From Peptococcia bacterium (GTDB lineage: Bacteria > Bacillota > Peptococcia > Peptococcales > SKKY01), in contig OZ245787.1 of the NCBI GenBank assembly GCA_965228015.1, positions 446,938 through 510,937 of the forward strand: a stretch of DNA of 64,000 bases, written 5' to 3'. This document shows positions 6,585-55,077 of this stretch, in pieces. The notes below the pieces were generated by a model. That model worked only from the letters and a program-made list of their open reading frames with translations, did no database searches and was not told where the DNA came from. Made by a program: the position numbers and the translations under genes. The stretch's first letter is position 1. Every line of letters begins with the position of its first letter.

Positions 6585-7215
6585 AATTATCCTCATCAAT
6601 CAAAATCATTACAGCAGGCAGCTGCTCATTTATAGTGTAATTTTTATAATCTTTTAATTTAAATTCAAGAATATCTTCATTATTATAACCTAAATTTATA
6701 CATATAAGAACTATGAAATTTCTATCTGCTTTTGCTTTAAGATATTCACAAACTTTTAATGGATTATTTTTTGGATCTGTCAACATCCCTATTTTCTTTT
6801 CTTCCATGTGATTATCTAATATTTCAAGATTCCTTCCATGAAGATTAAGGAGTACAGCGTCATGCCAAGAAAGGCCTGCTTTGGCAAAAGCCATTTGCAT
6901 TGAACTAATTCCAGGGATCATTTTTATTTCTTTTCGATGGAAAAATTTTGAAATATAATTTAGTAAACTGTAAAATCCCGGATCTCCGGAAACCAGAATG
7001 ACAATCTTTTTATTATTGTAATTATTTTTTATTATTGTAATTATTTCAGAAAGATTGCTTTTTATAACATAATTTTCTTTTTGCAAATATAACCATGGTT
7101 CAAGATTTCTTTCTCCGGCAATTAATATATCGGCTCCTTCAATTGTTCTGATACCCTCTGGTAAAATATATTCTTTGATCCCTAAACCAGTTCCAACTAT
7201 TGTGAAATGTTCCAT
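6574..7215 (-). CDS. cbiE: cobalt-precorrin-7 C5-methyltransferase CbiE
   Basis: 213-aa intact ORF with a tetrapyrrole methylase fold (VGTGLG, VSGDPGFYS, IPGISS). Confidence 0.8.
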   Translation of the reverse strand: MEHFTIVGTGLGIKEYILPEGIRTIEGADILIAGERNLEPWLYLQKENYVIKSNLSEIITIIKNNYNNKKIVILVSGDPGFYSLLNYISKFFHRKEIKMIPGISSMQMAFAKAGLSWHDAVLLNLHGRNLEILDNHMEEKKIGMLTDPKNNPLKVCEYLKAKADRNFIVLICINLGYNNEDILEFKLKDYKNYTINEQLPAVMILIDEDNYEL

Positions 7216-8310
7216 CCCGCAAATTCTCCAATCTTTCCAGCTTTATTATTAATATAAAGTATATTCTCTCTATCCTTTAATAACACGATCCCCACAGAAG
7301 CTTGAGAGAAAAGATATCTTTCACTTCTTTCAGAAGCTTTTTCAGCAATATCTTCCCAAATTTTCCCATAACCATTTTCTTCAATAATTTTCCATGCTCC
7401 CTCTGTGGTAATTTCATTCATAACAGTATTAATTAATTCTGATGGAGCATTATGCCGGGCAAGGTGAGCTGCTAATATTTCCATTCTTGAATCAGATATT
7501 CTGTTATGAGTATAGAAGTTACCTCCTGCTACTTTTACAATTTTACCAATATGACCCCATAAAATAATATTTTCAAAACCATTATCTAAAGCATGCTCCA
7601 GCATATAACCTATAAAATTGCTTGTGGTTACTATAGCATCTCTTGGAATTCCATATTTAACCGCAGAATCCATGCCAATATTTCCTGGTGTAAGAACTAT
7701 AGCTTTATACCCAAGAGCTTTGGTTGTTTTAATCTGGGGGACAAGAGAAACCTTAAATGCTTCTTCAGACATTGGTTCTACAATACCAGTAGTACCTAGA
7801 ATGGAAATCCCACTAATGATGCCTAAATGTGGATTAAGGGTTTTTTGCTAATTCCTCACCTTCAGGTACACTAATTTCAATAAAGAACTCCCTGTTTTCT
7901 TCAAAAAATTCCTGAAGATTTTCTATAATCATTTTTATTGGCCCAGGGTTAATTGCAGGTTCTCCCGGAGGGACAGAAAGTCCAGGTTTAGTTACCTTCC
8001 CAACACCTTTACCTGCAGTTAAAGTAACATCTGTAATTTTATTTGCATTATTTGATATCATTGCAGTAACAACTATGTCTTTTCTATGAGTGATATCCAG
8101 ATCGTCTCCTGCATCTTTTTCAATAGTTACTTTGGCAATATTTTCACTTAATATTTCTATGTTTTTTACAGGTATTTCCAAATACCCACCTCTTGCTAAC
8201 TTTACAGAAACCTTATCATGTTTTTCCTTATTTAATAAAACAAGAACAGTAGCTTTTGCTCCAACTGCCGCGCATGTACCTGTTGTATATCCTTCTCTTA
8301 GCTCTTTCAT
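7197..8310 (-). pseudogene. cbiD: cobalt-precorrin-5B C1-methyltransferase CbiD, one frameshift
   Basis: N-terminal ORF 7834-8310 (LREGYTTGTCAA). After the T6 run 7841-7846 the sequence continues in another frame as TLNPHLGIISGISILGTTGIVEPMSEEAF (ORF 7197-7772). Confidence 0.75.
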
Positions 8311-12963: not shown

Positions 12964-13821
12964 TCAGTTTATATTTCGTGCTTCAAATGGAGTCAGCCCT
13001 CCATTGTATGAATGAGGTCGAATGTGGTTGTACCACACATAAACATATTTATTGATAGCTTCATCTAATTGTAGGTCGGTTTCAAATTTTTGGTAGTAAA
13101 TAAGCTCTGACTTAAGTGATTTATAAAATCTCTCCATTGGAGCGTTATCATATGGGCAACCTGTTTTACTCATGCTTTGCCTTATTCCTTGGCTTTTGCA
13201 GTACTCTACGAAAGCCCATGAGGTGAACTGTACCCTCTGATCTGAATGTAAGACTAACCCTTCATCTGGGCTCTCTCTTTCAAGAGTTTTAGACAAGGCT
13301 TCTATTGCCAGATCTGAGTTGATTCATTTTGAGTTAACCGTTGCTATCGCTTCCCTTTTTGCTAAATCTATAATAGTACAATTATAACGCATTTTACCGT
13401 TTGTTAATCTTATATAGGTGAAATCAGTACACCATACTTTATTTCTTTCTGTGACAGAGAAATTTTGATTAAGAATATTGGGAAATACTTTGTTCTTTTT
13501 ACCTTTTACATATTTGGGCCTTTTTCTTACAGTGATTGCATGCAGGTTTAATTCCTTGTTCATATACTTATGTGCTGTTGTCTTACCAATAAATATATTT
13601 TGCCTTGCAAGAAAAGCGACCATCCACCTATGGCCGATAATGCGTCCATTATTGTAATAAATACTTTTTATGTTTTCTTGAACTTTAGCCTTTCCCTCAC
13701 GATACGTGGATTTTCTGTTCTTTAAGTAATTGTAGTACACATTCGGAGAGAGGTTGAACTTGCGGCACAACCAGCGCAATCCAAACTCAAGTTTATAGGC
13801 ATCAATGAACCGATATACCAC
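12964..13821 (-). pseudogene. IS3-family OrfB (DDE integrase core) with in-frame TGA
   Basis: Identical architecture to the uninterrupted copy-3 OrfB, but the Trp codon (TGG) is TGA at 13324-13326. The segments either side are in the same frame. Confidence 0.85.
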
Positions 13822-14104
13822 TAATCGATTTCCTTTGCGAAGAATGCTGCTGCTTTTTTAGGAAGTCATTTTCCTTTTGAAGTTCCATAAGCTTCTTGTT
13901 AAGCGCTCTATATTTCTCTGGTGATATTGCATTTTCTTTATTTTGTGGTTTTGTGTAATGACATTCTTCGCTGTATTTTTTTATCCATCCGGACATTGTT
14001 GATTTTGATACACCGTAGGTTGCAAAAAGATCACCAAGGCTTTTGCTTTTTAGATATTCATGTACAACCTCCTTCTTGAATTCTAAATCGTAACGTTTGC
14101 TCAT
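13802..14104 (-). CDS. IS3-family OrfA (HTH)
   Basis: MSKRYDLEFKKEVVHEYL..GVSKSTMSGWIKKYSEE..LQKENDFLKK. The slippery CTA AAA AAG lies near the 3' end. Confidence 0.8.
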   Translation of the reverse strand: MSKRYDLEFKKEVVHEYLKSKSLGDLFATYGVSKSTMSGWIKKYSEECHYTKPQNKENAISPEKYRALNKKLMELQKENDFLKKQQHSSQRKSISGISVH

Positions 14105-16727: not shown

Positions 16728-17981
16728 TGTAATGGTCAAGCATCTTTGTAACACTAAGTACGGAAAATCAGTTTATATTTCGTGCTTCAAATGGAGTCAG
16801 CCCTCCATTGTATGAATGAGGTCGAATGTGGTTGTACCACACATAAACATATTTATTGATAGTTTCATCTAATTGTAGGTCGGTTTCAAATTTTTGGTGG
16901 TAAATAAGCTCTGACTTAAGTGATTTATAAAATCTCTCCATTGGAGCGTTATCATATGGGCGATCTGTTTTACTCATGCTTTGCCTTATTCCTTGGCTTT
17001 TGCAGTACTCTACGAAAGCCCATGAGGTGAACTGTACCCCCTGATCTGAATGTAAGACTAACCCTTCATCTGGGCTCTCTCTTTCAAGAGCTTTAGACAA
17101 GGCTTCTATTGCCAGATCTGAGTTGATTCATTTTGAGTTAACCGTTGCTATTGCTTCTCTTTTTGCTAAATCTATAATAGTACAATTATAACGCATTTTA
17201 CCGTTTGTTAATCTTATATAGGTGAAATCAGTACACCATACTTTATTTCTTTCTGTGACAGAGAAATTTTGATTAAGAATATTGGGAAATACTTTGTTCT
17301 TTTCACCTTTTACATATTTGGGCCTTTTTCTTACAGTGATTGCATGCAGGTTTAATTCCTTGTTCATATACTTACGCGCTGTTGTCTTACTAATAAATAT
17401 ATTTTGCCTTGCAAGAAAAGTGACTATCCACCTATGGCCAATAATGCGTCCATTATTGTAATAAATACTTTTTATGTTTTCTTGAACTTTAGCCTTTCCC
17501 TCACGATACGTGGATTTTCTGTTCTTTAAGTAATTGTAGTACATATTCGGAGAGAGGTTGAACTTGCGGCATAACCAGCGCAATCCAAACTCAAGTTTAT
17601 AGGCATCAATGAACTGATATACCACTAATCGATTTCCTTTGCGAAGAATGCCGCTGCTTTTTTTAGGAAGTCATTTTCCTTTTGAAGTTCCATAAGCTTC
17701 TTGTTAAGCGCTCTATATTCCTCTGGTGATATTGCATTTTCTTTATTTTGTGGTTTTGTGTAATGACATTCTTCGCTGTATTTTTTATCCATCCGGACAT
17801 TGTTGATTTTGATACACCGTAGGTTGCAAAAAGATCACCAAGGCTTTTGCCTTTTAGATATTCACGTACAACCTCCTTCTTGAATTCTAAATCGTAACGT
17901 TTGCTCATTTTGTAATCCTCCTAGTTCGAGTTTATTATATATTATCCGTACTAGGTGTTACAACAAGACTATACCATTACA
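16728..17981 (-). mobile_element. IS3-family insertion sequence, copy 2 (1254 bp)
   Basis: Same IRs as copy 1, with a 3-bp direct repeat CTT at 16725-16727 and 17982-17984. orfA is frameshifted (T6 instead of T7 at about 17772-17777). The slippery run is A7 instead of A6. orfB carries the same TGA (17128-17130) as copy 1. Confidence 0.92.
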
Positions 17982-27151: not shown

Positions 27152-27623
27152 TTATAATAGTGTCACTTTGTTATTTTGTAATGATTTCTTTATATCAACA
27201 ACTCTTTGATTTGCAGATCCTCTAAACTTTAACGATATATCTTTTTCTTCAAGTATAAATTTGCCATCGACTAAAACGTCAATTTCTCTAAGTACTGGAA
27301 GATGAGAAATATCTTCAAATAAAAATCCGGTATAAACCCAGATATTTATATCCGGCTTCCTGCTTCTGATATATTTAATTACTTTTAACAATGGTTCATT
27401 TTGTAAAATTGGGTCTCCTCCACTAAATGTAATTCCAGAATGTATTGAATTAATTTTTTTAAAATTACTTTTGCTAACTGGATTTCATCAATTTCGATCC
27501 CTTCATCCAGGGGGAACAAATGAGGATTATGACAACCCTTACAATTCCATTTACAATCTTGTAAGAAAACAACCATTCTCATACCAGGACCGTCTACAAT
27601 AGAATCATTTAAAATATGCGCAT
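27152..27623 (-). pseudogene. nrdG: anaerobic ribonucleotide reductase activating protein NrdG (radical SAM), frameshifted, start codon unclear
   Basis: YAHILNDSIVDGPGMRMVVFLQDCKWNCKGCHNPH (ORF 27385-27582). The frame then changes into GITFSGGDPILQNEPLLKVIKYIR.. (ORF 27152-27391). No ATG is in frame with the conserved N-terminus. Confidence 0.7.
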
Positions 27624-27625
27624 AT

Positions 27626-29747
27626 CTAATCGTTTATTACACATCCATGTGCTTTACTCTGTTTTTTTCCCTCTGTTTTCTTTGCATCATTAAACATTTC
27701 AAGGGTAGATAAATAACCGGTAATTCTTCTGACTCTGCTTATTCTGCCTTTGTTTCCACATGCAGGACAGGTTTCAGAATCGATTACACCGTTAAATCCG
27801 CATTCATTACAAATATCTACTGGGAAATTAACAGCTGCATACCCCATATCTGCATCATACATTGCTTTTACAATTGACTCGAAAGCATCTATATTATGTT
27901 GCGGAGCACTTGGCAGTTCAACATAGGAAATATGCCCAGCATTACATAACTTGTGATATGGTCCTTCAATCTTTATTTTATCAAAAGCATTAATTTTAAA
28001 ATCAACAGGTACATGGAATGAATTGGTATACCAGTCTTTATCTGTAATTCCAGGAATTACTCCAAACATTTTTTATCTTTAGATGTAAATTTTCCACTTA
28101 ATCCTTTAGCTGGAGTAGCAAGAAGACTAAAATTCAAACTATATTTATCTGAAGCCTCATCACATTTTCTTCTTAAGTGGCTGATTATCGACAAGCCAAG
28201 AGCCTGAGATTCGGAACTTTCTCCATAATGCTTTCCTGTCAGGGCAATTAAAGTTTCTGCAAGGCCAATAAATCCAATTGATAAGGTTCCATGTTTAATA
28301 GCATCTTCAATTTTGTCGTCATTTTCCATATTTTCACTGCCAAGATACAGTTTTTGTCCCATTAAAAACGGGAAATCTTTTACTTTAAGATTCTTTTGTA
28401 TATCATAACGATGAAGAAGCTGTTCTGCTATTTTATCAAAAATTTCGTCCAAACTGTTCCAAAATACAGATAGATTTTTTCTGCTTTTATTCCAAGTCTT
28501 GGAAGATTTATAGTTGTAAAAGAAAGATTACCTCTTTTTTCCGTGATTTCAGGACCATTAACATTGCCAATAACTCTGGTACGGCATCCCATGTATGCAA
28601 TATCTTCTTCATAAGGAGAATTGAAAGAAGAATCCTGAAAAGAAAAATTCGGGAATAATCTTTTACAGGCAACCTCCATACTAAGTTTAAATAAATCATA
28701 GTTTGGATCTTCCGGCTCATAGTTAATTCCGTCTTTAATTTTAAAACAAATATTTGGGAATATTGGAGCTTCCCCTTTACCTAACCCTTTTGCATAGACT
28801 TTAAGAAGATTTTCGGCAATCATTCTTCCACCCCTGCTGATATCTGTTCCGATGTTAATTGAAGAAAAAGGAACTTGAGCTCCAGCCCGGCTGTGCATTG
28901 TATTTAAATTATAAATAAAACCTTCCATAGCCTGATAAGCTTCATCCTGGACTCTTGATTCTACCAGATTCTGAAGCTGTTCTTCAGTTATTACAACTCC
29001 CGCTTTTTCCATACTGTCTTTAATCATTCTTTTTTGACGCTCATATTCTTTCTCTACAAAAATTCCCATGTCTCTGTCAAAGTATGCATAGGATTGACCC
29101 CCATGCTGGTCATTTTGATTACTTTGAAGGATAATAGCTGCTAATGCAGCAGCAGTTTTTACTCCTTTTGGAGGTCTGATATATCCATGTCCATTGTTAA
29201 ATCCTTTTTCCATTAACTCAGATAGTGGAATTTGAAGGCAGGTCATAGTTTTTCCGTACCATGATAAATCACGGATATAAAAATCTCCATTTTGATGAGC
29301 TTCTGCTACTTTTTCCGGCAATGCTCTCTTTAAATAAAATTCCTTTGAAGCAACTTCAGAAATTTGAAGAACTTTCGCTGAAGTTGAATTCCCGACGTTT
29401 GCACTTTCTCTGCTGGTTTCAGTTAAAATTGTTGAAACTGCATCAAGCATTTCTGACCTTGCATCTCTAATATTAGTTCTTTTATCTCTGTATAGTATGT
29501 ATGCCTTTGCAGTTTTGGCATGACCTCTTTCAATTAACTCTTTCTCTACTGCATCTTGTACATCTTCAACAGTATATCTTTGATCTCCAAATTGATTTCT
29601 TAATCTCTTTATTACACCAAGCGTAATTTCCATAGCAGTTTCTCTGTTTTCTCCACCAACTGATTTCGCAGCTTCGAAAATTGCATCGGTTATCTTTCTT
29701 TCATCAAAAGGTACTTCTCGTCCATCTCTTTTTACTGTTAGGTCCAT
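27626..29747 (-). pseudogene. nrdD: anaerobic ribonucleoside-triphosphate reductase NrdD, two frameshifts
   Basis: ATP-cone start MDLTVKRDGREVPFDERKI at ATG 29747. Frame changes occur at the T6 runs 28475-28480 and 28069-28074. The C-terminus carries the Zn ribbon CNECG..CPACG and the glycyl-radical motif RRITGYL. Confidence 0.85.
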
Positions 29748-29827
29748 GTTATTTCCTCCGTCGTTGTATTTATAACTATAATTAGCGGTGAGTAACATTT
29801 TACTACCCTACATATAGTATGTTAACG

Positions 29828-31349: not shown

Positions 31350-31670
31350 TTATATAAATTGCAAAAGAGCCATAGCCGCCATTCCAGCTGCCAGGGTAAT
31401 TCTTGAGCTCTTTGTAATCGCTGCTGAAATAATAGCAGGTATTCCTGAGAGTAAATTTTTATTTTCTAAAGAAATATTTATTATTTCACCATTCCATTCT
31501 AACAACATTGGTATAACAAGAGCTGCAATAGTAGCTACAGGAACAAAGGTAAGCCATTCCTTTACTATTTCAGGTAAATCCATTTTGTTAAGAATTAATG
31601 CAGGAAAAAATCTTAAACTAAAATTTATGGCTCCTAAGGCAAGAATCAAAATAATTAATTTGTTTTCCAT
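31350..31670 (-). CDS. azlD: branched-chain amino acid transport protein AzlD
   Basis: 106-aa hydrophobic ORF overlapping the end of the azlC remnant. Confidence 0.7.
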   Translation of the reverse strand: MENKLIILILALGAINFSLRFFPALILNKMDLPEIVKEWLTFVPVATIAALVIPMLLEWNGEIINISLENKNLLSGIPAIISAAITKSSRITLAAGMAAMALLQFI

Positions 31671-32342
31671 CTTTTTAATACAACTCCTAATGATGCAGCT
31701 ATTAATGTAGCTAAAAGTATATTTGAATCTGTAAAACCAAGACTAATAAGAACCATTGATACTATACCGGCAAAAATCCCTGTTGTAACCATTAATCTGT
31801 TTTCCGCTGTCATAAAGAACAAGGCCATAAATATTGCAGGTAAAGCAAAATTTAAACCAAAGGTTTCCATATCAGGTATAAAACTACCCACATATACTCC
31901 AAGAATAGTACTGCATATCCAGGATAAGTGTGAAGTTACATTAAAGGCAAGCCAAAAAGCTGATTCAGGTTTATTTTCTTTAAAGTGTGTTGTAGATACA
32001 ACAAAAGTTTCATCAGTGATCCCCGCTATAATTATACCAACAAGCCAGGATGAAAATTTCTTTAAATGTAAAGACAAAGCCGCACTAAATAACAAGTAAC
32101 GGGAATTAACTAATAAAATTGTAATTAATATTGAAAAAACTTGCCCCTATTGTCATCATGGCTACTGTAATAAACTGTTCTGATCCGGAAAACAACAATA
32201 TTGACATTAAACCAACTTCAAAAGGATTCATGCCATAATTTTGAGCAATAACTCCAAAAGCTAAACCCAAGGGAAAATAACCAATACATATTGGGAATGA
32301 CTTTTTCATACCAAGGATTATTTCATTTTTCAAATTAATCAA
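31655..32342 (-). pseudogene. azlC: branched-chain amino acid permease AzlC, one frameshift
   Basis: ORF 32106-32342 (IGYFPLGLAFGVIAQNYGMNPFEVGLMSILLFSGSEQF) and ORF 31655-32095 are in different frames. Confidence 0.7.
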
Positions 32343-45303: not shown

Positions 45304-46703
45304 TTAAAAAACTTTTACAATATCAGGATCAAACTGAGACCCACTGTTTTCTTCAATTTCTTTTACTGTTTGACTAATAGGCAGAGCCTTCCTATAAGGT
45401 CGGTCATTTGTTATTGCATCAAAAGTGTCTGCAATTGCTAGTATTCTTGACTCAACTGGGATTTCCTCTCCCTTTAAACCTAAAGGATATCCAGAACCAT
45501 CCCATTTTTCCTGATGAGTTAGTATATAGTATGATATCTCTTTTAACTCATTGGATTCATTTGCAATTCTCTCTCCTATACTGGAGTGGGTTTTCATTAT
45601 TTCCCATTCTTCCCCAGTTAAAACACCGGGTTTTTTTAATATTGAATCGGGAATACCAACTTTCCCAATATCATGAAATTTTGAAAGCAGCTGAATCTTA
45701 TCAATTTGATTTTGAGTAAGTTTCATTTCTTTTGCTATTAATGTGGCCAAAGTTTCCATTCTGTCTGCATGACCTTCTGTAATATAATCTTTTACTTCTA
45801 AAGCCTTCATTAAGGTTTTTACCAGGTTATTTTTAGTGCTGGACTCCTTAAGCATTTTATTTTGATGCATGTTATTATCTGCTTCCTGAAAGAAGATAGA
45901 AGTATTTACCTCTCCTTTTTACTATATGCATAACCATAAGATAAACTAATACGAAATACCTCTTTCTCCTGGTTATGTTTTTCAAGCAAATTATTTAAAT
46001 TCTGTATCTCACTTTCTACTTCTTCTCTTGAAAAATTTTCAAGAATTACTGCAAATTCATCTCCGCCAACCCTTGCTACGAATCCTTTGTCTTTAAAATT
46101 TTCTCTGATTATATTACTAACAACAACCATTAACCTATCACCAGCAATATGTCCTAAAGTATCATTTACAATTTTCAGCCCGTCTATATCTATTAATATC
46201 AAAGCTCTTGATATATCACTTTTTTCTTCAAATCTCTTAAATATTTCTTCAAAATAGTTTCTGTTATAAAGATTAGTTAAACTATCCTTTTCTGCCATGT
46301 CCCTTAATTTTTTCTCCATTAAAACTCTTTCTGTAATATCTCTTATCATTATCAACACTTCATCTATTTCAGAAGTGCTGATTCTGGCCTCTAAATAATA
46401 ATTTTCTTTTGTTTTATTTAAAATAAAATTTAAAGTAATTAGTTCCTTGTATTTTATTGCTTTATTTATTCCTTCTCTTAGCAATCCGGTTATTTCTTTA
46501 TCCTTAAGAATATCACCAATCAAAGGACTTAATTTTTCGGAAGAAAATGAGAAAGGAGTAACATAACTTCTTGAATCACTTACAAAAAGCATGTCAGGAA
46601 TAGTTTTTAGCAAAGCCTTGTTTCTAATATTCGCTTTCTCAAGCTCCAAAATTTTTTCCTGAAGCTCTGAATAATAATTCTTTCTAAAAGAATCCTCTTC
46701 CAA
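45304..46703 (-). pseudogene. PAS-GGDEF-HD-GYP signalling protein split by one frameshift inside the GGDEF domain
   Basis: ORF 45906-46703 ends ..RVGGDEFAVIL..SLSYGYAYSKKER-stop. The GGDEF C-terminus (FFQEADNNMHQNK) continues in the HD-GYP ORF frame (HDIGKVGIP, HQEKWDGSGYP). The junction is at the T5 run 45916-45920. Confidence 0.7.
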
Positions 46704-47869
46704 ACCAATAATAGCTTCTCTTGTAAAATTCTTTCATAAATATTCCTCACTTCAGCTGGAGAAAGTTCTTTTGGATTAGTAACCATGCAAGGGTCATTCA
46801 AAGCATTTTTCACAACTAAATCATATAAATCATCTTTTGAACCTGCAATTTCAATATAACTTCTGATTCCAACATTTTCCCTTAAAATGCGAATTCTTTC
46901 AAGTAGTTTTTCTTTTACAGAATTTAAAGAATTTATTTCAATCCCCAAACTTCTTGAAATATTATTATATTTCTCTGGTGCTGAATCAAAATTTAAATCT
47001 ATTACATATTCTAATAAAATACTGTTACATTCTCCGTGAGGAAGATCAAGAAGGCCTCCAAGGCTGCGGGCCATACCATGAACTGCCCCAAGACTGGCAT
47101 TAGAAAAGGCAATTCCTGCATATAATGAACCAAGCATTAAATTGTTCATTATTTCAATATCCTTTTCTTCAGTCACAGCTTTTTCAAGATTTTTATTAAT
47201 TATTTTTATAGCCTCCAAGGCATGAATATCAGTTAAATTTGATTGTGCATTAGAAACATATGCCTCTATTGCATGAGTTAAAGCATCCATTCCAGTACAG
47301 GCAATAAGATTTGAATTCATTGTCATTAAAGGTACCAGGTCAATCAATGCAAGGTCCGGTACTACTTTTTTACTGATTATTGCTTTTTTAAGTAATTCAT
47401 TACTATCACATATTATTGCAAACTGAGAAACATCTACTGAGGTCCCTGAAGTACTGGGGATACAAACTAAAAGAGGCCCAGGTAATTTTATTTCATCTAC
47501 TCCTTCATAATCTAAAATATGTCCCCCGTTTGTAGCTACAATTGCAATCCCCTTGGCACAATCCATAGGGCTGCCACCGCCGACAGCAATAATAAGATCA
47601 CAATCTCCCGATAGAAAAACTTCAGCTCCAAGCATAGCTTCATAATCTTTCGGATTTTCTGAAACTCCATCAAATATACTATATGAACTGGTAAACTTTT
47701 CTATCTCATTTAATATGTCTTTATACCATTGTAACTCTGTTATATTATTATCAGTTACTATCAGGGGTTTTTTTGAGCTGAAATGAGATAAATATCTGCC
47801 AATTAACAATCTGGAATCTTCTCCTATTATTATTTCAGGAACAACAAATTTTCTTAATTCTTTACTCAA
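46607..47869 (-). CDS. iron-containing alcohol dehydrogenase
   Basis: GGGSPMDCAKGIA and ALTHAIEAY..HGECNSILL motifs. The 3' end runs about 97 nt into the next gene, so the true stop is uncertain. Confidence 0.8.
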   Translation of the reverse strand: MSKELRKFVVPEIIIGEDSRLLIGRYLSHFSSKKPLIVTDNNITELQWYKDILNEIEKFTSSYSIFDGVSENPKDYEAMLGAEVFLSGDCDLIIAVGGGSPMDCAKGIAIVATNGGHILDYEGVDEIKLPGPLLVCIPSTSGTSVDVSQFAIICDSNELLKKAIISKKVVPDLALIDLVPLMTMNSNLIACTGMDALTHAIEAYVSNAQSNLTDIHALEAIKIINKNLEKAVTEEKDIEIMNNLMLGSLYAGIAFSNASLGAVHGMARSLGGLLDLPHGECNSILLEYVIDLNFDSAPEKYNNISRSLGIEINSLNSVKEKLLERIRILRENVGIRSYIEIAGSKDDLYDLVVKNALNDPCMVTNPKELSPAEVRNIYERILQEKLLLVWKRILLERIIIQSFRKKFWSLRKRILETRLC

Positions 47870-47930: not shown

Positions 47931-47974
47931 ATAAAAAAGCTATTACTTTCTGGTTATTCCAGAAGGTAATAGCT
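47931..47974 (-). terminator. strong intrinsic terminator after the NifX-like/MinD-Fd operon
   Basis: 16-bp stem AGCTATTACCTTCTGG/CCAGAAAGTAATAGCT (one G-T pair) followed by T6 on the minus strand. Confidence 0.7.
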
Positions 47975-47982
47975 TTACTTTT

Positions 47983-48327
47983 TTATTCATGATGCCCGTG
48001 TTCATGACAAACAGAACCAGCGCAATTCAAATTACCAGATAAGTAATTTCGGAGTACTTCATCGCTTAAACCCTTTGCTCCAATAATAACTTCTATATTA
48101 TTTTCATTAAAGAGATCTACAGCTCCTCCACCCATTCCTCCAGAGATTATTGTATTTACACCTTTCTCGTGAAGGAAGACAGGTAAAAAACCTGGTTTAT
48201 GTCCCGGATTCTGAACCATTTCCTTACTAAGCAGATGCCCGTTATCTACAGTATAAATAATAAATCCCTCACAATGGCCAAAATGTTCAGTAACTTTTTC
48301 ATTATCTGAAGCAATTGCAATTTTCAT
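47983..48327 (-). CDS. NifB/NifX-family (Nitro_FeMo-Co domain) protein with a His/Cys-rich tail
   Basis: MKIAIASDNEKVTEHFGHCEGFIIY..ISGGMGGGA. The tail reads CAGSVCHEHGHHE. Confidence 0.7.
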   Translation of the reverse strand: MKIAIASDNEKVTEHFGHCEGFIIYTVDNGHLLSKEMVQNPGHKPGFLPVFLHEKGVNTIISGGMGGGAVDLFNENNIEVIIGAKGLSDEVLRNYLSGNLNCAGSVCHEHGHHE

Positions 48328-48329
48328 GT

Positions 48330-49193
48330 TTAAACCTCCATGTATTTTTTTATTATTTCATAAATTTTTCGAAGTTCATTTCCTGATTCACACTCTATAT
48401 CAGCAATAGTTAAGCCACGGTTGACTGCTTTTATAGCTTCTTTATCAAAAGGAATCTCTCCGATATAAGGAATATTATTTTTAGAACAAAAATCTTTAAT
48501 ATCATTAGTTTTTTCAATATTAGTGTCATATTTGTTAATACAGACTAAAGAATTGGTTTGAAATTTTGATGACGTTGAAATAATTCTTTCCATATCAGAA
48601 ATCCCAGATATAGATGGCTCTGCAACAATAAGAACCATGTCTACCCCGCTAATTGAAGCAATAACTGGGCAGCCTATTCCCGGAGAACCATCAATAATTG
48701 CAAAGTCAGCATCTTTTGCATTTTCTTTAAGTTGCTTTTTTACTTCGCTAACCAATAATCCAGAAGTACCGCTACCCATTTTTAATTTTGCCGTTGAAAA
48801 TACAACATCATCTTTATACAATTCTATATCTCCGGCTTTTGCTGGCTTTAACTTTATTGCTCCAGCCGGGCATACATATTCGCAGACACCACAGCCTTCA
48901 CAGGCGAAATAATCAATTAAATAATTTCCATTTTCTAAATAAATGCTTTCAAATCTGCATTTTTCCATACATATTCCACATTTAACACAGAACTCTTGAT
49001 TAATTTCTGCTTTGGGCAGACCAAAATAATCCTTTTTTATTGGATCAGTATTTTGTCTTAATACTAAATGAAGATTAGGAGCATCGATGTCACAATCAGC
49101 AAAGGCCTTAGCTTCAGATATTTTTATTAATGCACTTGCAATAGTTGTTTTACCCGTTCCGCCTTTACCGCTTAAAACAAGAAGTTGTCTCAT
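48330..49193 (-). CDS. MinD/ParA-superfamily P-loop ATPase with an inserted 2x[4Fe-4S] ferredoxin domain
   Basis: Deviant Walker A LSGKGGTGKTT. Cys clusters CVKCGICMEKC and CEGCGVCEYVCP. Confidence 0.75.
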   Translation of the reverse strand: MRQLLVLSGKGGTGKTTIASALIKISEAKAFADCDIDAPNLHLVLRQNTDPIKKDYFGLPKAEINQEFCVKCGICMEKCRFESIYLENGNYLIDYFACEGCGVCEYVCPAGAIKLKPAKAGDIELYKDDVVFSTAKLKMGSGTSGLLVSEVKKQLKENAKDADFAIIDGSPGIGCPVIASISGVDMVLIVAEPSISGISDMERIISTSSKFQTNSLVCINKYDTNIEKTNDIKDFCSKNNIPYIGEIPFDKEAIKAVNRGLTIADIECESGNELRKIYEIIKKYMEV

Positions 49194-49194
49194 T

Positions 49195-50034
49195 TTATTT
49201 TACCTCCCTTACTATTTTTTCAAGTAGAGAGGAAAATACTTTTTTATATTCTTCTTTTTCATTAGCGATAATATTTCCTTCACTGTTTAGTTTGCCAATT
49301 TCTTCACTATAATAAATTTTACCTAAAATATTAATATTATTTTCATTACAAAAATATTCAGAAGGATTAATTCCTTCTGAATATTTATTCAAAATAACAC
49401 CTGCGGGCTTATTGAATAATTTTACCAGTTCATAAACCATTTCCAGATTATGGGCTCCGAAAACAGAGGGTTCTGCTACAAGCAAACAGCAATCTGCATC
49501 TTTAATACTTTCCATTACTATACAGGCACTCCCAGGAGGACAGTCTACAATATTAATATAATTATTCTTTTTGTCACTTTCCTTCATTAGTTCTTTTATT
49601 AAAGGCACCCCTGAAGCTTCACCAATATTTAAAATACCTGTAAAAACAGAAACATTTCCACTATTTCCAATTTCTATTTTACCAATGCTTTTATATTTTT
49701 CTGCAATAGCTCCTGCTGGGCAAACTAACATGCAACCTCCACAAGAATGGCAAATATCTTCAAAGACCAGTAATTTATTACCTGTGTATGCTAAGGCATT
49801 AAAATTACAAAAATTAACACATTTTCTGCAGCCAATACATTTTTCCTGATCTACAGAAGGTATTTTGACTTTTATTTCTTTGGTATTACCTTTTTCAGGA
49901 TTGAAATATAAAAATCCGTTTGGTTCTTCAACATCACAATCAATATAATTACTATTCCCTGCTGAATAGGCAAGATTAACCGATACCAGAGTTTTGCCCG
50001 TACCACCTTTACCACTTAATACTGCTATTTTCAT
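49195..50034 (-). CDS. MinD/ParA-superfamily P-loop ATPase with an inserted 2x[4Fe-4S] ferredoxin domain (paralogue)
   Basis: LSGKGGTGKTL. Cys clusters CIGCRKCVNFC and CHSCGGCMLVCP. Confidence 0.75.
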   Translation of the reverse strand: MKIAVLSGKGGTGKTLVSVNLAYSAGNSNYIDCDVEEPNGFLYFNPEKGNTKEIKVKIPSVDQEKCIGCRKCVNFCNFNALAYTGNKLLVFEDICHSCGGCMLVCPAGAIAEKYKSIGKIEIGNSGNVSVFTGILNIGEASGVPLIKELMKESDKKNNYINIVDCPPGSACIVMESIKDADCCLLVAEPSVFGAHNLEMVYELVKLFNKPAGVILNKYSEGINPSEYFCNENNINILGKIYYSEEIGKLNSEGNIIANEKEEYKKVFSSLLEKIVREVK

Positions 50035-50036
50035 AA

Positions 50037-50405
50037 TTAATTACTTACCTTGCCATGAAATCCTTCATGGATATCATTTAATAAAGATAACTTATTATCT
50101 AAAAAAATATCAATATTTTCCCTGGCAGAAACCTTTTCGGATTTATACATTTTTATTTCTGCATTGTTAATAACATCAGCCGCATTTTCTCCGCATCTTG
50201 GGGTAATCAATACTTCCGCACCGCTGTCAACTACTAACTGAGCGGCTTTTATTCCTGCTCCCCCTTTTGCGTTTGCTGCAGTGTTTTCTATATATTCAGC
50301 AGCCTTGCTTTCTGTATCATAAATTAAATAGTATGGCGCCCTTCCAAAGGAAACCGAAACTAGATTATTAATATCTTTCTCATCTATTGGTATTGCTATT
50401 TTCAC
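50037..50405 (-). CDS. NifB/NifX-family (Nitro_FeMo-Co domain) protein
   Basis: GTG 50405 sits behind AGGAGG. VKIAIPIDEKD..SFGRAPYYLIYD..GGAGIKAAQLVVDSGAEVLITPRCGENA. Confidence 0.65.
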   Translation of the reverse strand: MKIAIPIDEKDINNLVSVSFGRAPYYLIYDTESKAAEYIENTAANAKGGAGIKAAQLVVDSGAEVLITPRCGENAADVINNAEIKMYKSEKVSARENIDIFLDNKLSLLNDIHEGFHGKVSN

Positions 50406-50773
50406 TACAAAAACCTCCTGTTCCTTCCTTGTCCAGAACCATGTCCGCATATTCCGCAGCTTTGACCAGGTTCCTGGTCTTCACATAGAAGATAATCTCC
50501 CCCTTCAATTTTCATTAAAACCCCTTCTACTAAGGAGGCTGAAATTTTTTTCCTTGCGCTGTTATATATACCCTGGACTGTAGTTCGGGCTACATCCATT
50601 CTTACAGCACATTCCTCTTGATTTAGTCCTTCATAATCGATTAAACGTATCGTCTCATATTCATCAATACTTAAAACAATTATTTGATCTTCCTGAACTG
50701 ATCCCTTTAATGGGCCAAAAAGAGTTCTTTTAGGTAATTCGCATACCCTTCTTCTTCTTCTCGGTCTGGGCAT
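50405..50773 (-). CDS. DUF134 (UPF0251) predicted DNA-binding protein
   Basis: MPRPRRRRRVCELP..DEYETIRLIDYEGLNQEECAVRMDVARTTVQGIYNSARKKIS..IEGGDY. Cys/Gly/Arg tail. Confidence 0.75.
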   Translation of the reverse strand: MPRPRRRRRVCELPKRTLFGPLKGSVQEDQIIVLSIDEYETIRLIDYEGLNQEECAVRMDVARTTVQGIYNSARKKISASLVEGVLMKIEGGDYLLCEDQEPGQSCGICGHGSGQGRNRRFL

Positions 50774-50776
50774 ATT

Positions 50777-50965
50777 TTACAAGCTTCTCCTTCCCTGTCT
50801 TCTTCCACAACCTCTTCCGGCACCTTGCATTTTAAGTCCTCTTGCGAAACCGAAAGTTCTTTCATTTGATTCAAGTGAGTTATTACTTCCATTGCTGCAA
50901 TTTCCCATTTTTCTTCCAGTCATAGGACCTTTACCTTCTGGACCTGTACTATTTCTACCTGGCAT
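50777..50965 (-). CDS. DUF5320-like small Gly/Arg-rich protein
   Basis: ATG 50965 sits behind GGGGGGAG. MPGRNSTGPEGKGPMTGRKMGNC..GRGCGRRQGRR. Confidence 0.6.
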   Translation of the reverse strand: MPGRNSTGPEGKGPMTGRKMGNCSNGSNNSLESNERTFGFARGLKMQGAGRGCGRRQGRRSL

Positions 50966-50982: not shown

Positions 50983-51034
50983 TGACATATGTCATTTACA
51001 GTTATCATTTTACTCCTTTTGCAACATATGTCAA
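50983..51034 (-). promoter_or_regulatory. near-consensus promoter (TTGACA-16-TAAAAT) plus the perfect 12-bp palindrome TGACATATGTCA
   Basis: Minus strand: -35 at 51029-51034 and -10 at 51007-51012. The palindrome at 50983-50994 lies just downstream of the predicted start. The 10-mer TGACATATGT also forms the -35 site. Confidence 0.55.
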
Positions 51035-53823: not shown

Positions 53824-55077
53824 TGTAATGGTCAAGCATCTTTGTAACACTAAGTACGGAAAATCAGTTTATATTTCGTGCTTCAAATGGAGTCAGCCCT
53901 CCATTGTATGAATGAGGTCGAATGTGGTTGTACCACACATAAACATATTTATTGATAGTTTCATCTAATTGTAGGTCGGTTTCAAATTTTTGGTAGTAAA
54001 TAAGCTCTGACTTAAGTGATTTATAAAATCTCTCCATTGGAGCGTTATCGTATGGGCAACCTGTTTTACTCATGCTTTGCCTTATTCCTTGGCTTTTGCA
54101 GTACTCTACGAAAGCCAAGGAGGTGAACTGTACCCCCTGATTTGAATGTAAGACTAACCCTTCATCTGGACTCTCTCTTTCGAGAGTTTTAGACAAGGCT
54201 TCTATTGCCAGATCTGAGTTGATCCATTTTGAGTTAACCGTTGCTATTGCTTCCCTTTTTGCTAAATCTATAATAGTACAATTATAACGCATTTTACCGT
54301 TTATTAATCTTATATAGGTGAAATCAGTACACCATACTTTATTTCTTTCTGTGACAGAGAAATTTTGATTAAGAATATTGGGAAATACTTTGTTCTTTTC
54401 ACCTTTTACATATTTGGGCCTTTTTCTTACAGTGATTGCATGCAGGTTTAATTCCTTGTTCATATACTTATGCGCTGTTGTCTTACTAATAAATATATTT
54501 TGCCTTGCAAGAAAAGTGACTATCCACCTATGGCCAATAATGCGTCCGTTATTGTAATAAATACTTTTTATGTTTTCTTGAACTTTAGCCTTTCCCTCAC
54601 GATACGTGGATTTTCTGTTCTTTAAGTAATTGTAGTACATATTCGGAGAGAGGTTGAACTTGCGGCATAACCAGCGCAATCCAAACTCAAGTTTATAGGC
54701 ATCAATGAACCAATATACCACTAATCGATTTCCTTTGCGAAGAATGCCGCTGCTTTTTTAGGAAGTCATTTTCCTTTTAAAGTTCCATAAGCTTCTTGTT
54801 AAGCGCTCTATATTCCTCTGGTGATATTGCATTTTCTTTATTTTGTGGTTTTGTGTAATGACATTCTTCGCTGTATTTTTTTATCCATCCGGACATTGTT
54901 GATTTTGATACACCGTAGGTTGCAAAAAGATCACCAAGGCTTTTGCCTTTTAGATATTCACGTACAACCTCCTTCTTGAATTCTAAATCGTAACGTTTGC
55001 TCATTTTGTAATCCTCCTAGTTCGAGTTTATTATATACTATCGGTGCTAGGTGTTACAACAAGACTATACCATTACA
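53824..55077 (-). mobile_element. IS3-family insertion sequence, copy 3 (1254 bp)
   Basis: Same IRs as the other copies, with a CTT direct repeat at 53821-53823 and 55078-55080. orfB is uninterrupted (285 aa, 53864-54721). orfA carries a CAA-to-TAA change at 54777-54779. Confidence 0.92.
53864..54721 (-). CDS. IS3-family OrfB (DDE integrase core), uninterrupted copy
   Basis: 285 aa: ..WCTDFTYIRL..HSNQGVQFTS..YDNAPMERFYKSLKSE. It is in the +1 frame relative to orfA rather than -1 (see findings). Confidence 0.8.
   Translation of the reverse strand: MVYWFIDAYKLEFGLRWLCRKFNLSPNMYYNYLKNRKSTYREGKAKVQENIKSIYYNNGRIIGHRWIVTFLARQNIFISKTTAHKYMNKELNLHAITVRKRPKYVKGEKNKVFPNILNQNFSVTERNKVWCTDFTYIRLINGKMRYNCTIIDLAKREAIATVNSKWINSDLAIEALSKTLERESPDEGLVLHSNQGVQFTSLAFVEYCKSQGIRQSMSKTGCPYDNAPMERFYKSLKSELIYYQKFETDLQLDETINKYVYVWYNHIRPHSYNGGLTPFEARNIN

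Follow-up and report, generated by a model that had tools for sequence, protein, structure and literature searches.

The window, that is, the whole 64-kb stretch of DNA analysed here, contains between positions 47983 and 50965 six tightly packed open reading frames on the minus strand, with the position and packing described in an earlier note on this DNA. An independent gene caller, run on another contig of the same organism, gave six products of 62, 122, 122, 279, 287 and 114 residues, and the junctions between genes range from -1 to +3 nt. The domain assignments of that note were all recovered by Pfam: gene 1 (50777..50965, minus strand, as are all those that follow) encodes a DUF5320 protein (PF17253, 6.5e-12); gene 2 (50405..50773), a DUF134 (UPF0251) protein (PF02001, 1.5e-20); genes 3 (50037..50405) and 6 (47983..48327), two Nitro_FeMo-Co proteins (the two matches having E-values of 2.6e-20 and 2.9e-22); and genes 4 (49195..50034) and 5 (48330..49193), a MinD-class ATPase (A) and its paralogue (B), both combining CbiA/ParA with many Fer4 families. 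Gene 3 starts with a GTG at position 50405, overlapping by 1 nt the DUF134 stop codon, and is preceded by an AGGAGG ribosome-binding site.

Upstream of the block lies a sigma-70-type promoter on the minus strand (51007..51034), TTGACA-16-TAAAAT, which matches the consensus at 11 of 12 positions and was the top hit of a 4-kb scan; the block thus has the near-consensus promoter of its own that had been claimed for it. The same promoter architecture is found upstream of the homologous clusters at five related loci (L039-L042 and L125). The intrinsic terminator that had been reported also exists, although it is larger than the 16-bp stem at 47938-47974 first described, since it comprises an 18-bp stem and a 5-nt loop (47936-47976, minus strand), followed by a T-run on that strand.

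The ATPase pair and the Nitro_FeMo-Co proteins

Both ATPases contain the deviant Walker A sequence GKGGTGKT, with its signature lysine, and two Cys4 ferredoxin motifs (CIGCRKCVNFC and CHSCGGCMLVCP in one; CVKCGICMEKC and CEGCGVCEYVCP in the other), as the earlier note had indicated. These motifs belong to an insert of about 60 residues behind switch I, which forms a 2x[4Fe-4S] ferredoxin domain. ATPase B is 33% identical to A. In ATPase A, the eight ferredoxin cysteines and the switch-II residue Cys171 (D.PPG..C) are invariant among 42 sequences, while ATPase B has an invariant switch-II Cys175 (DGxPGIGCP); eight ferredoxin cysteines and one switch-II cysteine per ATPase are invariant across phyla. 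The single invariant switch-II cysteine of each ATPase, as deduced from these alignments, is a new observation. Natural A-B fusions of about 600 residues, always in the order A then B, account for 33 of the 150 top cluster representatives; they are also first described here, and would support only the contact between A and B.

The AlphaFold model of ATPase B (pLDDT 90.8) has as its best PDB folds MinD, followed by FlhG/FleN, ATPase-type HypB, CooC1 and NifH. The TIGR01968 MinD equivalog model gave 62.8 bits against a cutoff of 212.9. With MinD, NifH, CooC and ATPase-type HypB, dimeric P-loop NTPases of the SIMIBI class, the pair shares the signature lysine of the deviant Walker A and the MinD-like fold; a switch-II cysteine of relevance to metals also occurs in several members that are metallochaperones or reductases. 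It differs from them in the ferredoxin insert, the obligate pairing of paralogues and the lack of MinC or MinE partners. The switch-II segment of ATPase B aligned to the DSPAGIET sequence of MinD (hhalign probability 94%), and hhalign left this region unaligned to NifH, for which reason the cysteine is at most a candidate equivalent of NifH Cys132. No more than one of the two ligands of the NifH-type cluster could have a counterpart in A and B, and a single cysteine per subunit cannot by itself ligate a [4Fe-4S] cluster of that type.

Among PDB sequences, gene 3 matched TM1816 (1RDU, 3.7e-20), MTH1175 (1EO1, 6.8e-20) and, over residues 2-107, the D. gigas orange protein (2WFB, 1.9e-13). Its product has no conserved cysteine, and conservation in the family is concentrated in FGRA...GGAGI.AAQ...G.NA. 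The similarity to MTH1175 and TM1816 (about 1e-20) exceeds that to the D. gigas protein, and the ligand could be an Fe-S cluster or a thioferrate rather than a Mo-Cu cluster. The literature has not settled whether the Mo-Cu cluster is physiologically relevant. MTH1175 belongs to the clade of IssA, a protein of the same domain family that binds an anionic thioferrate with a cationic Gly/Arg tail (PMC5524996). The predicted likeness to IssA lies in an anionic metal-sulfide ligand that needs no cysteines. However, gene 3 lacks the cationic Gly/Arg/aromatic tail, a cationic Gly/Arg peptide being encoded separately by the DUF5320 gene, and IssA, unlike the protein encoded here, has not been reported with a dedicated ATPase pair (PMC5524996).

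Gene 6 aligned with positions 265-365 of the 365-position NCBIfam model for MrpORP (NF041136, 4.2e-33), although its 115 bits are far below the 450-bit cutoff and the P-loop NTPase domain is missing; it also matched TM1290 (1O13/1T3V, 5e-15). Its HFGHCE motif is retained, its C terminus ends in CHEHGHHE, and the CAGSVCHEHGHHE tail noted previously on one of the two Nitro_FeMo-Co proteins is present; among 55 relatives, H15, H18, C19, H43 and C107 show 86-100% conservation. Gene 6 thus keeps both HFGHCE and a Cys-His motif at the C terminus, which have been proposed as the cluster ligands of MrpORP (PMC6345978), the Fe-S carrier (Orp9) in which an Mrp/NBP35 domain is joined to a Di-Nase domain. 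In contrast to MrpORP, gene 6 lacks the first cysteine of the CxHFGHCE motif.

Correspondence with the orp cluster of Desulfovibrio

On sequence grounds, the block can be identified as the Firmicute version, here in an Eubacteriales-like metagenomic organism, of the orp (ORange Protein complex) cluster known from Desulfovibrio. Homology and synteny place gene 3 as an ORP/IssA-type protein and Orp8 counterpart, genes 4 and 5 as the A and B paralogues of Orp3/Orp4-type ATPases, and gene 6 as a free-standing, Di-Nase-type protein equivalent to the C-terminal part of MrpORP (Orp9) that binds the cluster; DUF5320 and DUF134, found at the head of the operon in Firmicutes and some Desulfobacterota, are accessory genes. 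ATPase A and the first ATPase of ORP loci are one-to-one best matches, the A/B correspondences with the ATPases beside ORP in Desulfovibrionaceae and other groups ranging from 1e-37 to 9e-65. Among 36 genome loci retrieved by a search with 2WFB, the ORP-type gene matched gene 3 in 35, A and B adjoined in that order in 33, and the full order ORP - A - B - gene-6-like was found in about 26, the gene-6-type domain of the remaining loci differing in position or presence. An Oleidesulfovibrio locus (L036) also carries OrpR and an MrpORP fusion, as in the published locus (PMC6345978, PMC8359166). A second sample consisted of 80 metagenome loci picked solely by similarity to ATPase B and blind to neighbours. 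There, 55 of the 58 loci that could be tested have A immediately upstream of B, and a Nitro_FeMo-Co gene of any type is nearby in 25 of 27 (ORP-type in 24 of 27), which supports a conserved co-occurrence of this gene set.

The D. vulgaris and D. alaskensis orp products form a physical complex of five proteins with [4Fe-4S] motifs in the two ATPases; the orange protein holds a Mo-Cu sulfide cluster, and Orp3, Orp4 and Orp8 co-purify as an ATPase/ORP subcomplex that receives Fe-S from MrpORP (PMC6345978). The earlier note had regarded its gene set as functionally uncharacterised and without an experimentally defined role; since the set is that of the characterised Desulfovibrio cluster (PMC6345978, PMC8359166), this claim of novelty fails. 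With D. vulgaris Hildenborough (Orp3, Orp4, Orp5, Orp8 and Orp9; DVU2103-DVU2109) and D. alaskensis G20, the window has in common the ORP-type Nitro_FeMo-Co protein, the pair of MinD-like paralogous ATPases, which adjoin in the same order and have two [4Fe-4S] motifs each, and an MrpORP-type Di-Nase domain. Moreover, in many Desulfobacterota orp loci DUF134 adjoins the ORP-type gene or is fused to it.

The window has one sigma-70-type operon with a palindromic operator, whereas the Desulfovibrio genes form two sigma-54 operons, which diverge from each other and depend on OrpR and IHF for activation. Since OrpR occurs only in delta-Proteobacteria (PMC8359166), the sigma-54/OrpR feature defines the Desulfovibrio variant and not the cluster. 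In contrast to the Desulfovibrio operons, that of the window is led by DUF5320, and a recognisable Orp5 (a small Fe-S protein of the Dde_3197 type) is not among its six products; at the Orp5-equivalent position, the Oleidesulfovibrio locus has a Gly/Arg-rich ORF without Pfam match, which DUF5320 resembles in composition only. Finally, Desulfovibrio has MrpORP, whose Mrp/NBP35 ATPase loads Fe-S clusters, while only its Di-Nase half is present here, as gene 6; a tblastn search (E<=1e-3) found no homologue of NifH, Mrp, OrpR, MBL or NifU elsewhere in the 64-kb window. In Firmicute relatives, the order DUF5320 - DUF134 - ORP - A - B is followed by MBL - Mrp - DiNase or by the MrpORP fusion. The two halves of MrpORP are fused in L040 and L125 and split in L039, L041 and L124, and the Di-Nase half stands alone in the window, L042 and L043. 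The present copy is, within the 64-kb window, a reduced form without the Mrp ATPase.

Operator, DUF134 and DUF5320

Two palindromic sites accompany the promoter. Site 1 (51022..51033; TGACATATGTTG on the minus strand) is an imperfect palindrome over the -35 hexamer, with two mismatches to TGACATATGTCA, and relatives have a perfect palindrome at its position. Site 2 (50983..50994) is the perfect palindrome TGACATATGTCA; it lies in the 5'UTR, at about +6 to +17 and 18 nt upstream of the DUF5320 start codon, and is the only exact occurrence in the 64-kb window. Position 50965 is the likely true start of gene 1, because the ATG at 50995 falls inside the operator. Across 121 loci (1.29 Mb), 27 exact matches to TGRCATATGYCA were observed against 0.25 expected, an enrichment of about 100-fold; 24 of them fall in the 250 bp that precede the first cluster gene, and 22 of these lie at distances of 33-93 bp, clustered at two offsets. 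The operator accompanies DUF134 even at loci without the A and B ATPases (L124, L126). A conserved dual operator with one site over the -35 box and another within the 5'UTR, which appears to track DUF134, is, to judge from these scans, a new finding.

The DUF134 protein scored 74 bits in Pfam (gathering threshold 27), with weaker matches to Sigma70_r4, and has 2277 relatives at E<=1e-5; Cys11, Cys55, Cys97, Cys106 and Cys109 are conserved. Some 50 residues in the core of its AlphaFold model (pLDDT >90) can be superposed on region 4 of ECF sigma factors with a deviation of 0.6-1.4 A, and each half of the operator is similar to TTGACA. A Thr/Ser change in the recognition helix tends to go with an A/G operator variant (4/4 vs 2/8, two-sided Fisher p = 0.06), a covariation that is weak and phylogenetically non-independent. 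The association of DUF134 with the operator is a correlation. DUF134 is proposed to be an autoregulator that binds this operator. Fusions of DUF134 with Nitro_FeMo-Co occur in Desulfobacterota.

The DUF5320 product is a small, cationic, Gly/Arg-rich protein (62 residues, net charge +9, 14 Gly, 2 Cys) that matched only positions 1-55 of the 99-position profile (46.9 bits, threshold 27). It ends in a Gly/Arg tail, and profile positions 56-99 are unmatched. By phmmer, DUF5320 is found in only 9 of 27 neighbourhoods.

Proposed function, rival explanations and broken neighbours

With a probability of about 0.7, the locus is a Firmicute orp cluster in which A and B would handle a metal-sulfur cluster at the expense of ATP, under a DUF134 repressor. 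The idea of an ATP-driven system for a metal or Fe-S cofactor with its own DNA-binding regulator, already advanced in the earlier note, is supported. For the present organism, we infer all the mechanistic steps beyond homology from sequence. A and B, given that both carry a signature-lysine Walker A and that natural A-B fusions exist, would form an ATP-sandwich heterodimer, whose four [4Fe-4S] clusters and one switch-II cysteine per subunit would couple ATP binding and hydrolysis to the building, reduction or handing over of an anionic metal-sulfur cluster. This cluster, which could be Fe-S, thioferrate or Mo/W-Cu thiometallate, would sit non-covalently on the ORP-type protein, while the Di-Nase protein would bind it via His/Cys ligands, and the cationic Gly/Arg DUF5320 peptide may bind it electrostatically, like the tail of IssA. 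DUF134 would be a dimeric, sigma-region-4-like helix-turn-helix repressor acting on a pair of TGACAT.ATGTCA palindromes, located over the -35 box and just past the transcription start; it would probably sense redox or cluster status via four or five conserved cysteines, taking the place of OrpR, the Fe-S/PAS sigma-54 activator of Desulfovibrio.

Cofactor handling has to be weighed against the original proposal for the Desulfovibrio ORP complex, in which a MinD-like ATPase pair acts as a spatial regulator of cell division that positions the septum, with the metal clusters being regulatory. MinD proteins are indeed the top structural matches of ATPase B (Foldseek E about 1e-13), morphological defects appear when orp expression is lost, and MrpORP localises to a cell pole (PMC8359166, PMC6345978). 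However, the cluster contains no gene for MinC or MinE, nor do the relatives that were inspected, its constant neighbours encode proteins of the cofactor type (Nitro_FeMo-Co, Mrp and at times NifU_N), and the invariant ferredoxin and switch-II cysteines would not be expected in a purely positional ATPase. In addition, the morphological defect could be an indirect effect of metalloenzyme deficiency, and the authors themselves consider the physiological role of the complex still unclear (PMC8359166), all of which makes septum positioning quite unlikely here. The expression of orp only at very low redox potential, about -425 mV (PMC8359166), would suit an ATP-dependent low-potential reductase resembling NifH, BchL or an "archerase", in which A/B injects electrons into a separate target and the Nitro_FeMo-Co proteins are adaptors rather than carriers. 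This explanation is unlikely as well: the SIMIBI-class fold shared with NifH and BchL, the four predicted [4Fe-4S] clusters per heterodimer and the switch-II cysteine point towards it, but the ligands of a NifH-type bridging cluster are not both present, and the core cluster encodes no conserved candidate target. In L044 and L041, a gene for a Glu_synthase-domain Fe-S flavoprotein does adjoin the cluster, accompanied by an exact operator of its own in the former and by a near-operator in the latter; it was found at three loci only and is absent from the window. The tight coupling to two cluster-binding Nitro_FeMo-Co proteins, and in relatives to Mrp and NifU, agrees better with the handling of a cofactor.

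It is very improbable that the block is a remnant or accessory of nitrogenase cofactor biosynthesis, with carriers of the NifB/NifX/NafY type. The Pfam Nitro_FeMo-Co domains and a weak match of gene 6 to TIGR02663 nifX (0.0043; 17.5 bits, below the family cutoff of 112) are what speaks for it, whereas the proteins group with ORP, MTH1175, TM1816, TM1290 and MrpORP and not with NifX, and the cluster is described as widespread in non-diazotrophic anaerobes (PMC3897727, PMC8359166). In line with the lack of nearby nitrogenase genes stated before, the tblastn search of the window detected no NifH, none appears in the gene tables of those relatives that were inspected, and the ORF map of the window shows no obvious candidate of NifD/K/E/N/B size.

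Within the preferred reading of an orp-type cofactor system, a more specific possibility can be put forward tentatively, and is open to considerable doubt: that DUF134/UPF0251 proteins are undescribed Cys-ligated, Fe-S- or metal-sensing repressors with a sigma-region-4 fold, which, sitting on -35-like half-sites in the promoter and the 5'UTR, would therefore compete with sigma-A, and that ORP is a minimal, nitrogenase-independent cluster maturase. If so, DUF134 would be a dedicated Firmicute switch for metal-sulfur machines based on Nitro_FeMo-Co, the NifH-like A/B heterodimer would give ATP-gated electrons or metal to a cluster on an IssA/ORP scaffold, and the cationic DUF5320 peptide would be a detached IssA-type tail.

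The block lies among broken genes, and its intactness had been taken as a sign of selection. The breaks around it were confirmed (there are split genes for CobQ, CbiD and AzlC, one for NrdD in three pieces, and truncated ones for NrdG and OpuAC), but the inference is weak, because a 3-kb block would escape the breaks by chance with P = 0.3-0.5, at a density of about 15-25 breaks per 64 kb that is a rough visual estimate with only some breaks confirmed by Pfam. Of the breaks whose reading frame was checked, most are frameshifts, a part of them located at T6-T7 runs, and could reflect long-read assembly error rather than gene decay. Even nrdD is hit by frameshifts, in an apparent anaerobe.

Identity of the six-gene block as an orp cluster

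The block at 47983-50965 of the minus strand is made of six ORFs separated by junctions of -1 to +3 nt, and a gene caller predicted the same products of 62, 122, 122, 279, 287 and 114 aa on an independent contig from the same organism (ENA assembly ERZ25074352), which bears out the tight packing described in the earlier note. The domains it had assigned were all supported by Pfam: DUF5320 (6.5e-12), DUF134 (1.5e-20), two Nitro_FeMo-Co domains (2.6e-20 and 2.9e-22) and, in both ATPases, CbiA/ParA together with multiple Fer4 families. The block also has, as claimed, its own promoter (TTGACA-16-TAAAAT at 51034..51007, minus strand, with a consensus score of 11/12) and terminator (an 18-pair stem at 47936-47976, minus strand), and a tblastn search found no homologues of NifH, Mrp, OrpR, MBL or NifU elsewhere in the window, in agreement with the reported lack of nearby nitrogenase genes.

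The first lead to the identity of the block came from gene 6, which matched the C-terminal 100 positions of the NCBIfam model NF041136, "iron-sulfur cluster carrier protein MrpORP", at 4.2e-33. Among solved structures, gene 6 matched TM1290 (1O13/1T3V, 5e-15), and gene 3 matched TM1816 (1RDU, 3.7e-20), MTH1175 (1EO1, 6.8e-20) and the Desulfovibrio gigas orange protein (2WFB, 1.9e-13). At least 36 loci were then fetched from species-representative genomes with the 2WFB sequence, and their ORFs were scored against the six window proteins. These loci were mostly from Desulfobacterota, plus Holophaga, one Nitrospirota and one Eubacteriales genome; among the matches listed, Desulfovibrionaceae and Oleidesulfovibrio stand in for the D. 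gigas and D. vulgaris genomes, themselves absent. In 35 of the 36 loci listed, the ORP-type gene matched gene 3, and in 33 the two ATPases adjoined each other, the best match to gene 4 preceding the best match to gene 5. The window order, that is, ORP, ATPase A, ATPase B and a gene-6-like Nitro_FeMo-Co gene, was complete in about 26 of the 36, while in the remaining loci listed the gene-6-type gene was found ahead of the ATPases or was missing, or the ATPases were distant from ORP. In the Oleidesulfovibrio locus (L036), the cluster is preceded by a PAS/sigma-54 activator and followed by a 374-aa fusion of Mrp with Nitro_FeMo-Co, which is the architecture of the published orp locus (PMC6345978, PMC8359166). 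The six-gene block is, therefore, the known orp (ORange Protein, ORP) cluster and not a new system, although the window copy is simpler than that of Desulfovibrio, being a single sigma-70 operon of six genes without an Mrp domain. In the bona fide orp locus L036, ORP and ATPase A are separated by a 115-aa Gly/Arg-rich ORF (L036:10386-10733) with two Cys and no Pfam match; Orp5 would be expected at this position, and the composition of the ORF recalls DUF5320.

The notion that these genes had received no experimental characterization was consequently wrong, as the ORP complex, its clusters and its regulation have been published for Desulfovibrio. In D. vulgaris Hildenborough, the complex consists of Orp3, Orp4, Orp5, Orp8 and Orp9: Orp3 and Orp4 each contain two [4Fe-4S] ferredoxin motifs, Orp5 is a homologue of a small [2Fe-2S] protein, Orp8 is a homologue of a protein with a non-covalent [S2MoS2CuS2MoS2] cluster, and MrpORP (Orp9), which has Fe-S clusters in both domains, transfers Fe-S in vitro to a co-purifying Orp3-Orp4-Orp8 subcomplex (PMC6345978). 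The orp genes are described as anaerobe-specific (PMC3897727). In Desulfovibrio, OrpR and IHF drive transcription of the operons from sigma-54 promoters; expression is on at about -425 mV and shut off at about -280 mV, and its loss leads to morphological defects (PMC8359166, PMC3897727). The earlier note was right in considering the function unresolved, since the literature continues to call it unclear despite over ten years of Desulfovibrio work, and the domain logic it proposed (ATP-driven cofactor handling) was judged sensible.

Cluster core, ATPase pair and cofactor-binding proteins

So as not to select on ORP, aligned B-type ATPases were used as the query against metagenome contigs, and the 80 loci obtained were annotated. 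An A paralogue was found directly upstream of ATPase B in 55 of the 58 loci with enough flank. Among the 27 loci with wide flanks, 25 carried some Nitro_FeMo-Co gene near ATPase B (ORP-type in 24, Di-Nase-type in 18), so the conserved co-occurrence proposed earlier was indeed observed; DUF134 was present in 13, an Mrp ATPase in 12, DUF5320 in 9 and the six families together in 6. The core of the cluster is thus formed by ORP, A and B, the other genes being frequent accessories. In named Firmicutes (Clostridium tyrobutyricum, Tissierella praeacuta, a Mycoplasmatota bacterium and C. formicaceticum), the arrangement is DUF5320, DUF134, in some cases NifU_N, ORP, A and B, then MBL, Mrp and Di-Nase or an MrpORP fusion. 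The window and its closest relatives (L042 and L043, 77% identity) display a reduced form without MBL and Mrp. The metallo-beta-lactamase-fold protein located between ATPase B and Mrp (as in L039:4947-5768, L040:5868-6692 and L041:5882-6679, L039 being the C. tyrobutyricum locus) occurs in many Firmicute clusters and in 7 of the 27 metagenome neighbourhoods, and is given no role in the ORP papers cited here.

The two window ATPases are paralogues, 33% identical. When all 1.84 billion cluster representatives (50% identity clusters) were searched, 591 relatives were obtained at E<=1e-30, and 33 of the best 150 among them are proteins of about 600 aa in which an A module is followed by a B module; these natural fusions argue for A and B forming a heterodimer. 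Across several phyla (42 A-type and 40 B-type sequences), none of the eight ferredoxin cysteines varies, and neither does one more Cys in each ATPase, Cys171 in A (D.PPG..C) and Cys175 in B (DGxPGIGCP), within a segment that hhalign placed on the DSPAGIET sequence of MinD, i.e., switch II, with a probability of 94%. The AlphaFold model of ATPase B (pLDDT 90.8) had MinD as its top structural likeness, followed by FlhG/FleN, McdA, the ATPase-type HypB, CooC1, NifH/BchL and ApbC. When the ATPase B profile was compared with NifH using hhalign, only the part from the P-loop to switch I aligned, and the half after the insert did not align with NifH switch II. For this reason, no equivalence between Cys175 and NifH Cys132 is claimed, and the analogy serves as a lead only. 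A "DCD" cysteine in switch I was considered as a second ligand and rejected, because only 28-40% of the sequences conserve it. No solved structure of a full-length ferredoxin-insert MinD was found.

The two Nitro_FeMo-Co proteins differ in their conserved residues. The gene-3 (ORP) type has no conserved Cys and keeps the motifs FGRA, GGAGI.AAQ and G.NA, a pattern that fits an anionic cluster bound without covalent ligands. In the gene-6 (Di-Nase) type, the conserved residues are His15, His18, Cys19, His43 and Cys107, equivalent to the HFGHCE and C-terminal Cys-His motifs of MrpORP, for which a role as cluster ligands has been proposed (PMC6345978). The study of IssA assigns MTH1175 to the IssA clade and shows the domain binding anionic thioferrate, helped by a cationic Gly/Arg-rich tail (PMC5524996). 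The window DUF5320 protein (62 aa) has a net charge of +9 and 14 glycines, and it could be speculated that it takes the role of the cationic IssA tail in trans. Literature searches with the DUF5320 family name and COG number returned incidental mentions only.

A candidate operator and its putative regulator DUF134

A 12-bp palindrome encloses the -35 hexamer of the window promoter, and a perfect copy, TGACATATGTCA, is located at about +6 to +17 (window 50983-50994). The same two-site layout upstream of the first cluster gene was observed in C. tyrobutyricum, Tissierella, Mycoplasmatota, C. formicaceticum and many metagenome loci. In 1.29 Mb of fetched loci, exact TGRCATATGYCA matches numbered 27, compared to 0.25 expected, and 24 of them lie within 250 bp upstream of a DUF5320 or DUF134 start codon: 22 at 33-93 bp, grouped at two offsets, with the other two, from the fetched locus L063, at about 200-225 bp. 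The motif is present even in loci, found from DUF134 homologues, that lack the A and B ATPases, such as that of Aminipila (DUF134, a small ORF and Nitro_FeMo-Co) and, as a degenerate copy, that of Paenibacillus macerans (DUF134, Mrp and Nitro_FeMo-Co).

In the DUF134 model, the three helices of the core are confidently predicted and can be superposed on region 4 of ECF sigma factors (0.6-1.4 A, about 50 residues), and the half-site of the candidate operator resembles the -35 hexamer, which region 4 reads. In Firmicute DUF134 proteins, Cys11 is invariant, Cys55, Cys97 and Cys109 are conserved in at least 90% and Cys106 in the majority. In Desulfobacterota, DUF134 is fused either to an ORP-type domain (L002, L003, L005-L008, L013 and L021) or to another Nitro_FeMo-Co domain (L019, L022 and L024-L029), and these two kinds of translational fusion provide a Rosetta-stone link between the HTH and a cluster-binding domain. 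A change of Thr/Ser in the presumed recognition helix tended to accompany the A/G operator variant, in 4/4 versus 2/8 cases (two-sided p = 0.06, cases that are not phylogenetically independent). From these observations we infer that DUF134 is a putative autoregulator of the operon, probably responding to redox or cluster state, and that it would correspond in function to OrpR, the sigma-54 activator of Desulfovibrio orp. Orp7 was reportedly described as a DUF134 protein in the founding orp paper (Fievet et al. 2011). Literature searches with the DUF134 family name and COG number produced incidental mentions only, with nothing on an operator or regulation, and no solved structure of DUF134 was found.

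In three fetched loci (L044:3711-5336, L041:9105-10760 and L051:1-309), the cluster is adjoined by a gene, absent from the window, for a protein of about 510 aa with a Glu_synthase domain and a Cys-rich motif near its N terminus. This gene has its own exact TGACATATGTCA 72 bp upstream in L044 and a one-mismatch site about 125 bp upstream in L041, and it may also belong to the DUF134 regulon.

What is new here is the candidate DUF134 operator, the DUF134-Nitro_FeMo-Co fusions, the natural A-B fusions and the invariant switch-II cysteine; with these, a vague "conserved hypothetical cluster" becomes open to concrete experiments in genetically tractable clostridia. The window copy offers a simpler version of orp to study, with a sharply defined pair of candidate operator and regulator, and the remaining interest lies in this pair, in the fused A-B proteins, in the Cys of switch II and in the minimal form devoid of Mrp.

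Broken neighbours and evidence for selection

The earlier note had taken the integrity of the block, in a window rich in broken genes, as a sign of selection. The breaks themselves were confirmed by partial coverage of Pfam profiles: CobQ, CbiD and AzlC are split, NrdD is in three pieces, in three frames, and NrdG and OpuAC are truncated (the NrdD, NrdG, CobQ, CbiD and AzlC breaks being located in the segments 27152-29798, 1251-2778, 7197-8310 and 31655-32342). SpoVS and YmdB, also considered as possibly broken, are both intact. Most breaks are frameshifts, because the split pairs checked sit in different reading frames, and several fall at T6-T7 runs. The disrupted genes include nrdD, for the anaerobic ribonucleotide reductase. 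Since the contig names resemble those of a long-read metagenome assembler, sequencing error is an alternative to decay, and the breaks could be assembly errors rather than true pseudogenes. In either case, intactness is weak evidence for selection: at 15-25 random breaks per 64 kb, a rough visual estimate from the ORF map partly confirmed by Pfam, a 3-kb block escapes by chance with a probability of 0.3-0.5. The real evidence for selection is the sequence conservation of ATPase B, which has invariant motifs and retains an identity of about 65% between Firmicute families and of 34-40% between phyla.

Directly upstream of the cluster, on the same strand, the segment 51038-53137 encodes a tandem-P-II-like protein (235 aa) and two DUF1538 membrane proteins, with no terminator between these genes and the orp promoter; they were rejected as parts of the system, as they are not conserved as cluster neighbours in relatives. 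On the other side, the Fe-ADH ORF (46607-47869), with an odd C-terminal extension, overruns 97 nt into the next gene, GGDEF (45906-46703), and the GGDEF domain is followed by a separate ORF of the HD-GYP type (45304-45870). Loss of the stop codon, or a frameshift at the T6 run at 46652, could account for this. An IS3-family element is present in three copies (12964-14104, 16768-17908 and 53864-55004), differing by 33 substitutions and two T-run indels. The first two copies are degenerate, whereas the third, which is intact, abuts a truncated DegV gene (186 aa, compared to about 282 aa in the relative L042). Two short ENA contigs with an identical cluster (L037 and L038) show mirror-image gene orders, e.g., DUF1538 - DegV - IS ... 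IS - DegV - DUF1538, and look like fold-back assembly artefacts.
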